DNA of 59,018 bases, from IMG/VR virus record IMGVR_UViG_3300003279_000015, positions 1 to 59,018 of that record; one strand, given 5' to 3'. The notes beneath the pieces are model-generated. The model did no database searches. It worked only from the letters and a program-made list of their open reading frames with translations, and was not told where the DNA came from. The translations under genes and the position numbers were made by a program. Position 1 is the first letter of the stretch. Each line of letters starts with the position of its first letter. This document shows, in pieces, positions 1 through 3,426 of this stretch. Origin of the DNA: a virus (Duplodnaviria > Caudoviricetes).

Positions 1-1105
1 GGAACAGACCATTTCCTGGGCCCGTCTCTACGGAGGGTGCATCGGGTTCCTGATGATCGATGGACAGGACCCTGCGACACCGTTGCGGATCGAGACGATC
101 GGCAAGGGCCAGTTTCGTGGCGTGCTGCCGCTGGATCGCTGGACGGTCCGCCCCACCACCGAGGAACTCGTGCCGGACTTCGGGCCGGAATTCGGCCAGC
201 CGATGTATTACCTGACGAACGCGTCGGCGATGCTGCCGAACATGAAGATCCACCACTCGCGCGCACTTCGGTTCGTCGGTGAAGAGTTGCCGTATTGGCA
301 GAAGGTGAGCGAACTCGGCTGGGGTCTATCCGTTCTTGAACCGTTCTATGACCGGCTCGTCGCTTTCGACAGCACCACGCAGGGCGCCGCACAGTTGGTC
401 TACCGCGCGCACCTTCGCACGCTTTACCTGCCGGGGTTGCGCGAGGCGATCGCCGCCGGCGGCCCGGCGCTGAACCAGATCGTCGCCAACCTCGGCATGA
501 TCCGCAAATACCAGGGGATCGAGGGCCTGACCCTGCTGGATGGCGACGACAAGCTGGACCATCAGTCTTACACCTTCTCCGGCCTGGACATGGTGCTGGT
601 GCAATTCGCCCAGCAGCTATCGGGCGCTCTGCAGATCCCGCTGGTCCGGCTGTTCGGCCAGTCTCCCGCCGGCCTGAATGCCACCGGCGACGCGGATATT
701 CGTCTCTACTACGACGCCATCGCCTCCAAGCAGACGAAGACCCTCGAGAACCCACTCGACAAGGTCATGCAGCTTCAGGTGCGTTCCTACTTCGGCGCGC
801 CGCCTCCGGAGGACTTTGCGTTCGACTTCAACCCGCTCTGGCAGCTTTCGGGAACGGAGCGTGTCGATATCGCCGAAAAGGCGGAGCGGACCATCGGCTC
901 CGCTGTCGATCGCGGCTTGATGCCCCGGCACACCGGCATGGAGGAACTGCGCGGCCTGGCGCGCGAGACCGGCTTTTTCGGATCGATCACCGACGAGCAG
1001 ATTGCGGAGGCGGAAGCCGATCCGCCGCCGGTTGAGGAACTGCTGCCGGGCGTGCCGAACCCGGACGGAAACGTGGTGCCGCTGCGTCCCACCGGCTCCG
1101 TCTGA
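1..1105 (+). CDS. Portal protein (DUF1073-type), C-terminal part; continues from 58702..59018
   Basis: Frame open from position 2 (EQTISWARLYGG...IDGQD) with the LFGQSPAGLNATG..D...YYD motif; follows the terminase across the junction. Confidence 0.9.
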   Translation, partial: EQTISWARLYGGCIGFLMIDGQDPATPLRIETIGKGQFRGVLPLDRWTVRPTTEELVPDFGPEFGQPMYYLTNASAMLPNMKIHHSRALRFVGEELPYWQKVSELGWGLSVLEPFYDRLVAFDSTTQGAAQLVYRAHLRTLYLPGLREAIAAGGPALNQIVANLGMIRKYQGIEGLTLLDGDDKLDHQSYTFSGLDMVLVQFAQQLSGALQIPLVRLFGQSPAGLNATGDADIRLYYDAIASKQTKTLENPLDKVMQLQVRSYFGAPPPEDFAFDFNPLWQLSGTERVDIAEKAERTIGSAVDRGLMPRHTGMEELRGLARETGFFGSITDEQIAEAEADPPPVEELLPGVPNPDGNVVPLRPTGSV

Positions 1106-1108
1106 TCC

Positions 1109-2809
1109 GTGGCGACCGCCGAGGAACGTGCCAAGGCGCGCCGCGCCCGGTCCGCCTTCGAGCGGGTCCGGCGGGCGGAGATTGAATACGGCCGGAAGCT
1201 GCGCCGGATCGCCGACAACATCGCCACGCTGATCGAGGGCTTTGACCTCGAGGATCCGCGCTCCCAGGCGCTGATCGACACGGCACTTCGCAAATACGCC
1301 GAGACCCTGAAGCCCTGGGCGGCGGCGGTCGGCAAGACGATGATCGAGGAAACCGCCCGGCGCGACTTCGCGGCCTGGGCAGAATTCTCCCAGCAGATGG
1401 GCCAGGAGATCAGGGCCGAACTGCGCCAGGCGCCCACCGGCCTGCGGGTGCAGCAGCTTCTCGACGAGCAGGTCCGCCTGATCACCAGCCTGCCGCTCGA
1501 GGCGGCCGAGCGCGTCCAGCACCAGGCGGCCGAGGGGTTGGCGAAGGGCGAGCGGGCAAAGGAAATCGCCGACCGGATCATGGAAACCGGGCACGTCACG
1601 CGCAGCCGGGCCAACCTGATCGCGCGGACAGAGACGGGCCGGGTGGCGACCACGCTGACACAGGCGAGGGCCGAATCTATCGGCTCCGAGGGGTATATCT
1701 GGCGCACGTCGAAGGACTCGGACGTGCGGCCGTCGCACAAAGCGATGGAAGGCAAACGTGTTCTGTGGTCCTCTCCGCCGACTCTCGACGGGCTGACAGG
1801 TCACGCAGGCGCGCTGCCTAATTGCTTCCCGGCATCAACGAAAGTGTCCTTGACGAACGGTTGTCACAATCTGCTGCGGCGCTGGTACGAGGGAGACCTT
1901 GTCATCATCGAGCACGAGGGCGGCTTTCTGGATCTTACACCAAATCACCCGATACTCTGTCGGCGGGGGTGGGTTGCGGCGCAGGATATTGAGGCAGGCG
2001 ACGACATCGTTCAAAGCCTGGTCGATCACCGACTGGCTTTCGAAGACGACGAAAATCAGGGCCAGCCCACGTTCGGCGATCTCTTTCGATCTCTTGATGT
2101 TCTGGTGGGGCGAGAACGTCAGTCGAGATTTCTGTTTAATCTCCACGGCGAGCGGCCCGGTCACGATGTCGATGCAATACGGTCCGACCATCTCCTGGCG
2201 GCTCACGTCCCACCCTTTGCGCTGCAGGGCATTCGCGATCTCGCGCTCTCCTGGTCCAATAGCCGGATGATGAAGAGATGTGTCGTGGGCGGCTTCCTGC
2301 ATGTTCCGGAATCGCGCGGCCCTGGCCTTTTTGATCAGGATCTGCCGGGCCTCAGTCGGCATGGCCTGCATGCGCCGGACGTTCGCCTGGGAGGCGGTTC
2401 TACGCTGGACGCCGTGGCGGTCGAGTATCTTCGTGACGGTTCCTCGAGCGCAGCCGAATTCAATCGAAACGGCCAACTCGCTGTTGCCGCTTTGATAGGA
2501 TTGCACGACCTCTGGTTCGCAAAGGTCTTCTCGTCTGCGGCGCGGCGGAATGCGGTGGGGAATTACGATCCCACGGGCGCGGAGGCGCTTGCTGAGCGCG
2601 TCCGGGCCGAATCCGATTTGATTGGCGGCATCCCGAACGGTCCCTCCGGACGTTACAAAAGCTTGCGCACGATCAACAAGATCGTCAGAAAGTTTGCGGG
2701 ACATGTCTTCACCATGGAGACGGCTAACGGTTGGTTCACCGTAGGCAACTCCGCTGTGGTCGTCAAAAACTGCCGCTGCTACCCAGAGCCGATCCTGCCC
2801 AACGACTGA
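1109..2809 (+). CDS. MuF/SPP1 gp7-like head morphogenesis protein, interrupted by an intein
   Basis: RANLIARTE, YIWRTSKDSDVRPSH and the HAG..PN/CRC motif split by an insertion; lies after the portal. Confidence 0.9.
   Translation: MATAEERAKARRARSAFERVRRAEIEYGRKLRRIADNIATLIEGFDLEDPRSQALIDTALRKYAETLKPWAAAVGKTMIEETARRDFAAWAEFSQQMGQEIRAELRQAPTGLRVQQLLDEQVRLITSLPLEAAERVQHQAAEGLAKGERAKEIADRIMETGHVTRSRANLIARTETGRVATTLTQARAESIGSEGYIWRTSKDSDVRPSHKAMEGKRVLWSSPPTLDGLTGHAGALPNCFPASTKVSLTNGCHNLLRRWYEGDLVIIEHEGGFLDLTPNHPILCRRGWVAAQDIEAGDDIVQSLVDHRLAFEDDENQGQPTFGDLFRSLDVLVGRERQSRFLFNLHGERPGHDVDAIRSDHLLAAHVPPFALQGIRDLALSWSNSRMMKRCVVGGFLHVPESRGPGLFDQDLPGLSRHGLHAPDVRLGGGSTLDAVAVEYLRDGSSSAAEFNRNGQLAVAALIGLHDLWFAKVFSSAARRNAVGNYDPTGAEALAERVRAESDLIGGIPNGPSGRYKSLRTINKIVRKFAGHVFTMETANGWFTVGNSAVVVKNCRCYPEPILPND
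1823..2770 (+). mobile_element. Intein (316 aa) in MuF
   Basis: Block A CFPASTKV, block B LTPNHPIL..RGW, block F FAGHVFTMET, C-terminal VVKN followed by Cys+1; excision restores HAGALPN-CRCYPEP; more AT-rich than the flanks. Confidence 0.9.
1835..2704 (-). CDS. Putative homing endonuclease (2x HTH + DUF559/Vsr-like PD-(D/E)xK) encoded antisense inside the intein
   Basis: MSRKL.. 289 aa; HTH-like segments TVRDAANQIGFGPDALSKRL and SELAVSIEFGCARGTVTKIL; GEREIANAL..GW....QEMVGPYCIDIVTGPLAVEIK; upstream GGTGA. Confidence 0.75.
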   Translation of the reverse strand: MSRKLSDDLVDRAQAFVTSGGTVRDAANQIGFGPDALSKRLRARGIVIPHRIPPRRRREDLCEPEVVQSYQSGNSELAVSIEFGCARGTVTKILDRHGVQRRTASQANVRRMQAMPTEARQILIKKARAARFRNMQEAAHDTSLHHPAIGPGEREIANALQRKGWDVSRQEMVGPYCIDIVTGPLAVEIKQKSRLTFSPHQNIKRSKEIAERGLALIFVVFESQSVIDQALNDVVACLNILRRNPPPPTEYRVIWCKIQKAALVLDDDKVSLVPAPQQIVTTVRQGHFR

Positions 2810-2832
2810 ATCAACCGAAAGGGTTAACCACC

Positions 2833-3426
2833 ATGCGTCGCTTTGTCCCGTTGCTGACCGCCTTTTTCGTCGCTGCCCTGGCCGCCTGGCCGGTGCTTGC
2901 GCAGACGCAGAACGTCCAGCCGATCCGCCGCGCAACCTACTCCGCCGGGTTCGTCGCCCTGACGCCGGCCGCCAGCGCAACCGACTTCTTCACCCTGACC
3001 GGTTCGGCCACGAAGACGATCTGGGTGCACGGCGCGGGCTGTTCCGGCGCTTCGACCGCGGCGGCGCTCCCCGTGGTCCAGATCGTCAAGCGCTCGACCG
3101 CCAACAGCGCGGGCACCGCGGTGAACCTCACCGAGGTTCCGCACGACAGCCTGTCGACCGCCGCCTCGGCCACGGCGCAGTCCTACACGGCGAACCCGAC
3201 CACCGGAACGCTCGTCGGCGTGCTGCGGACCTTCCGCATGGCGACCGACGCGGCGACGACCACGGCGACCCCGACCGCCCCCGTGCCGGTGGGCTTCCGC
3301 TTCGGCGAGGTCTGGACGCAGCCGATCGTCCTGCGCGGCATCGCCCAGGTCCTGGCCTTCAACGCCAACGGCGCGTCGTTCGCGACCGGGACGACCCTGT
3401 CCTGCTGGGTCGAATGGTCGGAGTAA
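2833..3426 (+). CDS. Signal-peptide-bearing beta-rich protein in the head module (possible head fibre/decoration)
   Basis: MRRFVPLLTAFFVAALAAWPVLA|Q Sec signal; Thr/Ala-rich; two Cys. Confidence 0.7.
   Translation: MRRFVPLLTAFFVAALAAWPVLAQTQNVQPIRRATYSAGFVALTPAASATDFFTLTGSATKTIWVHGAGCSGASTAAALPVVQIVKRSTANSAGTAVNLTEVPHDSLSTAASATAQSYTANPTTGTLVGVLRTFRMATDAATTTATPTAPVPVGFRFGEVWTQPIVLRGIAQVLAFNANGASFATGTTLSCWVEWSE

Follow-up and report, generated by a model that had tools for sequence, protein, structure and literature searches.

The stretch of DNA analyzed here (the window) is the whole of IMG/VR virus record IMGVR_UViG_3300003279_000015, 59,018 nt from a member of the Caudoviricetes. Near its start lies a MuF head morphogenesis gene that contains a 316-residue intein, and entirely within that intein, on the opposite strand, lies a 289-codon open reading frame (ORF) that resembles a homing endonuclease gene (Table 1). 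Sequence comparisons lead us to conclude that this is probably a mobile MuF intein whose homing endonuclease is encoded as a separate gene on the opposite strand, and not as an in-frame domain. An earlier note, made from the letters of the window alone, had proposed an intein at 1823-2770 with clear splicing blocks and a stop-free minus-strand ORF running from 2704 to 1835 in codon alignment inside it. The intein coordinates proved exact, with profile and Pfam matches of its family to inteins, and translation confirmed the ORF.

Table 1. Features of the MuF intein locus in the window.
Feature	Position	Strand	Size and details	Basis
MuF head morphogenesis ORF	1109..2809	+	566 aa	ORF listing and translation
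MuF N-extein	1109..1822	+	238 aa, ends ...GALPN	Pfam; BLASTP to intein-less MuF
Intein	1823..2770	+	316 aa, contiguous open sense frame, MuF residues 239-554	Translation; phrog_15127
Hint N-terminal splicing part	1823..2035	+	Cys1, block B TPNHP, then GW..A..I..GD	Alignment A3; PI-MtuI alignment
Sense linker	2036..2665	+	~210 aa, nuclease gene read in reverse with codons aligned	No Pfam family at its cutoff
Hint C-terminal part	2666..2770	+	Block F FAGHVFTMET, block G VVVKN, then +1 Cys	Sequence
MuF C-extein	2771..2809	+	CRCYPEPILPND, 12 aa and stop	Translation; CxC motif at same position in intein-less MuF
Antisense homing-endonuclease-like gene	2704..1835	-	289 aa and stop, wholly inside intein	No internal stop
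Two helix-turn-helix (HTH) units	2375..2695	-	~residues 4-50 and 63-110	PHROG, Pfam and PDB profile matches
Vsr/DUF559-like PD-(D/E)xK nuclease domain	1940..2287	-	Residues 140-255; E153, D179, E188-x-K190	Alignment and profile
Weak Shine-Dalgarno-like sequence	2710..2713	-	GGTG, 5 nt upstream of nuclease ATG	Sequence

The host gene can be assigned to the Phage MuF / SPP1 gp7-like class, as its product contains a Phage_Mu_F domain (Pfam, residues 135-239, E = 3.5e-17) and the gene adjoins the portal gene; the protein also matches the head morphogenesis family phrog_324 (5e-61). The intein is inserted before the first Cys of a conserved CxC motif in MuF, between N and CRC, and a BLASTP alignment of the window protein with the intein-less MuF of Acinetobacter phage IME285 ends at this junction (ALPNC/WLPMC). 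Compared with the intein-less protein, the element is therefore an in-frame insertion that interrupts a conserved host motif. In relatives, the host genes contain Phage_Mu_F or the related Phage_min_cap2 domain (Pfam).

The sense reading of the insert runs CFPASTKV...TPNHP...GHVFTMET...VVVKN and then continues into CRC. Cys1 (1823-1825) is invariant in all 36 aligned family members, the block B TxxH motif is present as TPNH at intein residues 39-42, and blocks F and G lead to a C-terminal Asn followed by the +1 Cys. Within alignment A3, which holds the 36 members, G24, H42, and G49 are invariant and T39 and N41 are conserved in at least 90%. Automatic assignments of the intein ends were wrong at some loci and served solely for choosing N-terminal stretches. 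The family phrog_15127 matches intein residues 1-313 (E = 8e-31). An N-terminal profile of 105 residues built from the 36 members matches solved inteins, including the RecA mini-intein PI-MtuI (2in0, 1.7e-9), as well as a bacterial intein-like domain (1.1e-9), MJ0781 (2jmz, 1.2e-7), and 2lqm (3.2e-6), and it also matches the Pho RadA, NrdJ-1, and DnaB inteins; the Hint N-terminal part aligns to PI-MtuI residues 55-97. Pfam Intein_splicing is matched by 34 of the 36 members. When whole host ORFs are searched, this model spans the long gap and scores above the gathering score in 5 of the 10 tested, reaching the model end (155/155) in relatives, whose inteins end in HN, SN, KN, or RN and conserve the pattern GHVYNLET...HN-C. 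No LAGLIDADG or HNH family in Pfam matches the sense insert at E <= 1, in agreement with the earlier remark that neither motif could be seen there. These data support the sense element being an intein, and splicing is predicted from its conserved blocks.

The codons of the antisense ORF line up with those of the sense frame (offset 12 nt, 12 mod 3 = 0), and ~870 nt of the window can be read as protein on both strands. Its ATG is the reverse complement of the block F His codon CAT (2702-2704), and its TGA stop is the reverse complement of the intein Ser5 codon TCA (1835-1837). An exhaustive HMMER search over 1.84 billion cluster representatives returned 1395 representatives of the antisense protein family at E <= 1e-3, 390 at <= 1e-10, and 30 at <= 1e-30, the closest being 58% identical to the window protein (E = 6e-100). 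Most homologs are 280-305 aa long and match from residue 1 to the end, and the stop-free window ORF scores E = 8.8e-103 against the family model. The gene is present in a single copy in the window's own genome, and the query P0001 alone matched only an identical IMG/VR contig (L011) and none of the genome contigs. (Loci are given by their L numbers where they have to be told apart.)

A simpler explanation of such an ORF would be that it codes for nothing and is the mere shadow of a conserved sense protein in GC-rich DNA. The window has a GC content of ~60% and contains many long shadow ORFs, GC-rich genes often have an open codon-aligned antisense frame, and just 1.1 stops are expected here; taken by itself, the long antisense ORF in the window is likewise not significant. 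What lifts the arrangement above chance is that the antisense protein has homologs, the 1395 representatives, and that the doubly open arrangement recurs at GC contents down to 34-38%. The frame stays open for ~250-300 codons in genomes of 34-43% GC, family profiles match HTH families and the homing endonuclease I-Bth0305I, a homolog exists as a free-standing gene without an intein, substitutions favor the antisense frame, and canonical inteins that share a sense motif with this family have closed antisense frames; these last four points are detailed below. We give almost no credence to the shadow explanation, and the comparisons support the antisense ORF as a real gene. The earlier claim that the nuclease is a gene of its own is upheld by the 1395 representatives and by free-standing copies in Acinetobacter phages.

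A tblastn search with the antisense protein against 50,697 phage records matched 41 of them at 24-29% identity, among them Edwardsiella, Klebsiella, Vibrio, Aggregatibacter/Haemophilus, Salmonella, Pantoea, and Gordonia phages and a Helicobacter prophage. Ten GenBank records, from genomes of 34 to 67% GC, were examined; in nine the match lies antisense to a single annotated MuF-like coding sequence (CDS), and in the tenth, an Acinetobacter phage, it is free-standing. At all nine intein-bearing loci the intein contains the entire nuclease ORF, and the two frames are related as in the window. A scan of IMG/VR with a nuclease-frame peptide pattern (from the narrower alignment A2) found 80 loci, 65 of them distinct, and the codon-aligned opposite frame is open over the whole match in 79 of the 80. 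The lone exception is L089, whose nuclease frame is only 192 aa long and whose sense frame fails to cover the nuclease match. The earlier note had proposed that conservation of the antisense ORF in other MuF inteins be checked, and the ORF is indeed open in 9/9 GenBank and 79/80 IMG/VR loci.

A second scan, meant to remove the selection bias of searching with the nuclease, used the sense motif TPNHP[VI]LT only, as a degenerate DNA pattern, and yielded at least 119 stretches, of which 80 loci were listed. Among these 80 listed loci, 76, all distinct and with GC contents of 35-71%, have a codon-aligned antisense frame that matches the nuclease hidden Markov model (HMM). Fifty-one of the listed loci lie away from contig ends; 48 of these match the nuclease HMM and 46 have a frame open for at least 230 aa, and the sense frame is open for at least 240 aa past block B in 48/48 of the matching non-end loci. 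The same scan returned two other inteins with TPNHP[IV]LT, L120 and L123, whose antisense frames close at 21 and 8 aa and which can for that reason be used as natural negative controls. The in-frame insert of L120 was judged by eye to be LAGLIDADG-like. Locus L158 is a chance match to the motif. A further TPNHPVLT intein, L138, has a ~330-aa insert rich in Arg, Asp, and Gly, and its antisense frame is open for only 72 codons downstream; no nuclease-family match was found in its codon-aligned antisense frame. At L163 and L171 the nuclease frames are shortened to 106 and 206 aa and the sense intein is still open; these and L089 may be endonuclease genes in decay, which would be expected at a late stage of a homing cycle.

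Several GenBank records name the head protein yet miss the nuclease. The record of Escherichia phage Snoke (L093) annotates the MuF intein (PF14890, Cys244-Cys516) and not the antisense gene, and that of Salmonella phage PK1 (L094) includes, within its head morphogenesis gene, an automatically annotated antisense CDS labeled 'hypothetical protein'.

Acinetobacter phage IME285 and two records with identical copies provide a natural control, as in them the nuclease is an annotated stand-alone CDS. In IME285 the nuclease gene is convergent with an intein-less MuF gene of 237 codons, overlaps its 3' end by 7 nt, and lies ~40 nt from the CxC site; the Phage_Mu_F domain of this MuF is complete (model reach 110/112). 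Codons that would create a stop in the opposite frame are freely used by the IME285 nuclease, which contains 8 TTA, 1 CTA, and 3 TCA codons, corresponding to 12 stops in the opposite frame. None of these codons occurs in the nuclease frame in any of the ten embedded copies examined.

The number of sense stops expected was calculated for 63 unique embedded copies, with codon usage for Leu and Ser taken from the N-extein of the locus itself; 8 of 71 copies had been dropped for too few reference Leu/Ser codons. With TTA, CTA, and TCA counted, 0 sense-frame stops are seen where 475.8 are expected, a total over copies that are related and for which some reference values are noisy. For individual low-GC loci, the probability of finding none is 1e-7 to 1e-14.

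Substitutions were then counted in 14 non-overlapping pairs of relatives, chosen by hand from a ranking. In the middle zone, which encodes the HTH and nuclease domains, nuclease-frame codon positions 1/2/3 change 381/208/615 times. Among codons with a single change, 390 changes are synonymous and 200 non-synonymous in the nuclease frame (66% synonymous), against 151 and 439 in the sense frame (26% synonymous); about one-quarter of single changes are expected to be synonymous without selection on residues. In the MuF N-extein of the same pairs, which serves as a baseline, the positions change 755/517/1405 times and the synonymous and non-synonymous counts are 746 and 230 (76%). By these counts, the intein's middle part evolves in the manner of a nuclease gene, with sense residues that are seemingly free except for the exclusion of stops. 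The ~210 middle sense codons thus appear to be selected only to lack stops, as the earlier note had supposed. A different pattern is seen in the tail zone, where the final 80 codons of the nuclease overlap intein blocks A and B. Here positions 1/2/3 change 192/68/198 times and the synonymous/non-synonymous counts are similar in both frames (119/128 and 113/134). The N-terminal splicing blocks accordingly look dual-coded in these comparisons, with both frames constrained, and the earlier suggestion of constraint on both strands in this region holds.

The linker could alternatively be a functional folded domain, making the region doubly functional throughout. A sense motif, FHGD...E.E, is indeed conserved in it, and changes at nuclease-frame position 1 are fewer than would be expected at position 3 if that were fully free. 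This motif, however, is the mirror of the invariant nuclease D...VAVE, the linker has no family match in Pfam, and the 26% synonymous changes in the middle sense frame are near the quarter expected without selection and far from the 76% of the N-extein. Additionally, sense identity is below nuclease identity in 55/55 locus pairs, a comparison in which the alignment was built on the nuclease protein and favors it. A functional linker domain is in our view very improbable.

The predicted antisense protein combines two N-terminal HTH units with a C-terminal nuclease domain, as had been read from the window, and family profiles now bear out both parts. The HTH part matches the DNA-binding protein families phrog_664 and phrog_1303 and, in the PDB, 2lvs (2.4e-6) and resolvase HTH domains; in the window protein, Pfam HTH_23 is found at residues 66-96. 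Across 91 family sequences, the Pfam matches are HTH_23 (44/91), HTH_7 (33/91), REase_MTES_1575 (19/91), and DUF559 (9/91). A profile of the nuclease part alone, built from 49 sequences of viral loci (alignment A4), matches just two PDB sequences, namely 3r3p, the catalytic domain of I-Bth0305I (1.7e-8), and 3hrl, a DUF559-like 'endonuclease-like protein' (2.1e-7).

In the 91-sequence alignment (A1), D179 and E188 are invariant and E153, Q170, and Y176 nearly so. The window sequence D179...E188-I-K190 contains the D...(D/E)-x-K core, which places it among PD-(D/E)xK proteins at the sequence level. The D..E-x-K residues picked out in the earlier note therefore stand in part: D179 and E188 are invariant and E-x-K typifies the subfamily of the window, being found in 44/91 close relatives, but it is found in only 4/49 of the wider set, and other branches have E-x-G-G-x-W-H in its place. 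A His lies 3-12 residues after the invariant Glu in 23/91 sequences of A1 and 29/49 of A4, where the window has E-I-K instead.

As described in the available part of its structural report, I-Bth0305I has two N-terminal HTH/NUMOD-like motifs and a C-terminal Vsr-like nuclease, with an EDxHD motif formed by Glu170, Asp196, Asn208, His213, and Asp222 (Taylor et al. 2011, PMC3239194). The antisense family shares this domain layout, I-Bth0305I is the best PDB match of its nuclease profile, and in the profile alignment E153 and D179 fall on Glu170 and Asp196, both of which are conserved in the family. Equivalents of His213 and Asp222 are not conserved, and the window subfamily has the classical D...ExK. 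As the EDxHD His and second Asp are not conserved, catalysis may differ from that of I-Bth0305I, and the family is placed beside the EDxHD family and not inside it; on present alignments it is related to, but distinct from, that family. I-Bth0305I also resides in a group I intron, according to the same part of that report, while the window nuclease resides in an intein.

With a nuclease domain that has conserved putative catalytic residues and is encoded inside an intervening sequence, the protein has the attributes of a homing endonuclease. The antisense gene could nevertheless be real and have another role, as a regulator, an exclusion or defense nuclease, or an antisense unit that throttles MuF, with the intein spreading by recombination. 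Cleavage is only predicted, the EDxHD His and Asp are not conserved, two HTH units suit a regulator too, and free-standing phage nucleases can act in exclusion. Against such a role, the E, D, and E that are putatively catalytic show no or almost no variation, the gene occupies the usual site of intein endonuclease domains, the free-standing copy abuts the same target gene, and islands of identity are bounded by the intein. Moreover, I-Bth0305I, the closest relative of solved structure, is proven to be a homing endonuclease and has its domains in the same order, as given in the available part of its report (PMC3239194). We consider a role other than homing unlikely.

The identity islands were seen when identity was calculated in a sliding 150-nt window for four pairs of loci (L058/L059, L026/L027, L019/L021, and L042/L050). 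In all four, identity is 0.87-1.00 inside the intein, drops at its borders, and is mostly 0.35-0.80 in the flanks. A cassette that had recently moved between diverged phages would be expected to leave this pattern, which suggests such movement in these relatives of the window's copy. Horizontal movement is thus indicated for relatives, and the nearest relative of the window copy itself is only 58% identical (protein).

If the nuclease is a homing endonuclease, an antisense transcript would be made from which it is translated, and it would cut intein-less MuF alleles near the site encoding N-CRC during co-infection. Recombinational repair would then copy the intein, together with the nuclease gene, into the cut allele. 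On the sense strand, the MuF precursor would be translated through the ~210-residue linker, and the two Hint parts would fold and splice in cis. It is plausible that antisense expression would uncouple the nuclease from late head-gene expression.

Splicing in cis presupposes that the intein is made as one chain. It could be proposed instead that MuF is truncated at the junction, or that the two halves are separate as in fractured genes. The window C-extein is just 12 aa, a ~210-aa linker without a selected fold is unusual, and fractured genes with Vsr-like nuclease genes between split-intein halves do exist, as the accessible part of one study describes (PMC2677866). The sense frame is nonetheless unbroken, with 0 of the 475.8 expected stops and at least 240 open codons after block B in 48/48 of the matching non-end loci, and the residues needed for splicing (C1, TxxH, terminal N, and +1 C) have been retained. 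In relatives, C-exteins of 100-476 aa contain whole domains. We regard separate or truncated products as quite improbable. The locus was also considered as a fractured gene with a split intein in the strict sense, and two host ORFs are not found; the sense ORF is unbroken in the window and in 79/80 loci. Some intein-bearing MuF proteins are fusions, as judged by Pfam, with an ADP-ribosyltransferase (L046), a topoisomerase-IB-like domain (L090), or a portal domain (L057); with such long C-exteins, an open sense frame is indispensable in these three.

Signals for expression of the nuclease gene may be embedded in the splicing blocks. The nuclease ATG lies opposite the block F His (in GHVYNLET) in 50 of 71 unique copies, a count in which ~20 of the 71 start codons were picked automatically and may be wrong. 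In many copies GAGGTT occurs 7 nt upstream of the ATG and is the reverse complement of block F Asn-Leu codons. Further upstream, at -60..-20 on the nuclease strand, the hexamer TAnAAT is found in 25 of 46 unique upstream regions, compared with 4.4% of 40-nt windows inside the same genes. These hexamers, seen for example in L007, L014, L019, L058, L061, and L088, derive from block G Ile/Val codons, and may or may not be an embedded -10 box as opposed to a mere coding by-product; the upstream region of the window copy lacks the hexamer. In Edwardsiella phage MSW-3 (L001, 497-2357) and Klebsiella phage KpTDp1 (L005, 445-975), annotated genes on the same strand lie upstream of the nuclease and converge on the MuF 3' end. 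Read-through from these genes could be a source of antisense transcript in L001 and L005; the window has no such neighbor.

Taken across genomes, these features likely define a widespread class of phage MuF/minor-capsid inteins with a fully overlapping antisense homing endonuclease, present in phages of Proteobacteria, Actinobacteria, and Campylobacterota. In members of this class the start codon, the ribosome-binding site, and perhaps a -10 box would be contained in the reversed blocks F and G, and a ~210-codon stop-free spacer would separate the splicing blocks.

A number of observations weigh against the window holding a spliced intein with an antisense homing endonuclease gene. In the window alone, with 1.1 sense stops expected, the chance of finding none is ~0.3 and the open sense frame is not significant. 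Searched singly, the window's insert matches no Pfam intein model, and its N-terminal part has no Intein_splicing match at E <= 0.1; the penultimate intein residue is Lys and not the common His, and the C-extein is short, as noted above. The nuclease lacks the composite EDxHD motif, of which the E and first D are conserved and the His and second Asp are not, and selection on the nuclease frame in the middle zone is weaker than that on the N-extein (66% vs 76% synonymous). A promoter/terminator scan of 1500-3300 found no terminator and, on either strand, no sigma-70-like promoter, and the neighboring head genes in the window are all on the plus strand, leaving no evident source of an antisense transcript. 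Finally, the loci compared are not phylogenetically independent.

Inteins are taught as in-frame fusions of splicing and endonuclease domains, and to our knowledge a fractured gene with a split intein is the only known alternative. Like the canonical mobile inteins PI-SceI and PI-MtuI, the MuF element has a Hint domain interrupted after block B by endonuclease coding sequence and occupies a conserved position in an essential gene; it is presumed to spread by homing, and its profile aligns to PI-MtuI. It differs from these in that the endonuclease would be a separate protein from the opposite strand and the in-frame insert a stop-free, otherwise unconserved linker. Free-standing homing endonuclease genes next to their targets are known, as is 'collaborative homing' with an endonuclease-less intron. 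The IME285 nuclease, beside its intein-less MuF gene, resembles these systems, whereas the window gene lies inside the intervening sequence. Group I introns of nuclear rDNA can carry an endonuclease gene on the antisense strand and so likewise hold a reverse-oriented homing endonuclease gene within a self-splicing element. Their intron RNA, however, need not be an ORF, while here the opposite strand has to stay translatable for ~316 codons.

There is a further likeness to the fractured genes, in which a free-standing endonuclease gene of Vsr-like or GIY-YIG type separates the two halves of a split intein, in the part of the report available (Dassa et al. 2009, PMC2677866). As far as that part extends, they resemble the MuF element in that the endonuclease site of the intein holds a gene translated on its own (a prediction for MuF), and they share with it a Vsr-like nuclease with N-terminal DNA-binding motifs, a prevalence in phages, and coding overlaps with intein parts. 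They differ, in the same description, in that the endonuclease gene overlaps, at its 3' end, the beginning of the next gene downstream, and that the host is split into two ORFs whose products are joined by trans-splicing; the window gene is antisense, its host frame is unbroken, and the overlap is total, at ~870 nt compared with 6-69 bp (PMC2677866).

MuF inteins as such are already known, as the available part of a survey lists 14 inteins in COG2369 (Mu F/gp6-like) proteins (Novikova et al., PMC4760082, Table 3). For an endonuclease gene antisense within a contiguous intein, no description was found in open-access full text, although subscription papers and InBase notes could hold one; the earlier statement that the architecture seemed unreported agrees with this. 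The parts are familiar, and it is their antisense, fully overlapping arrangement that appears to be new.

If the arrangement is as proposed, it would be a third way for an intein and an endonuclease to be joined, beside in-frame fusion and gene fracture, and would rank among the longest well-supported antisense dual-coding regions in prokaryotic viruses. Antisense overlapping genes are disputed in bacteria and phages, and here each frame has evidence independent of the other, with Hint homology on one strand and, on the other, nuclease homology and a free-standing relative whose 12 opposite-frame stops act as a built-in control. Gene callers annotate just one member of the pair. An intein that tolerates a ~210-aa unselected linker would be relevant to intein engineering, and the nucleases form a pool of candidate site-specific enzymes. 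The system also makes it testable how endonuclease genes invade inteins and whether uncoupling from a late structural gene helps homing.

The remaining genes around MuF are those of a head module. Upstream lies the portal gene and downstream are genes for a head protease, a structural protein, and the major head protein. Directly after MuF, an ORF of 197 aa (2833-3423, plus strand) encodes a protein with a signal-peptide-like N-terminus, MRRFVPLLTAFFVAALAAWPVLAQ, and has no PHROG match at E <= 1e-3. The portal ORF (1-1105, plus strand) is open at its 5' end and matches phrog_146 at positions 129-454 of 587, so that the record begins inside the portal gene. CheckV rates the record as complete, and the start within the portal gene fits a permuted or arbitrarily opened genome record.

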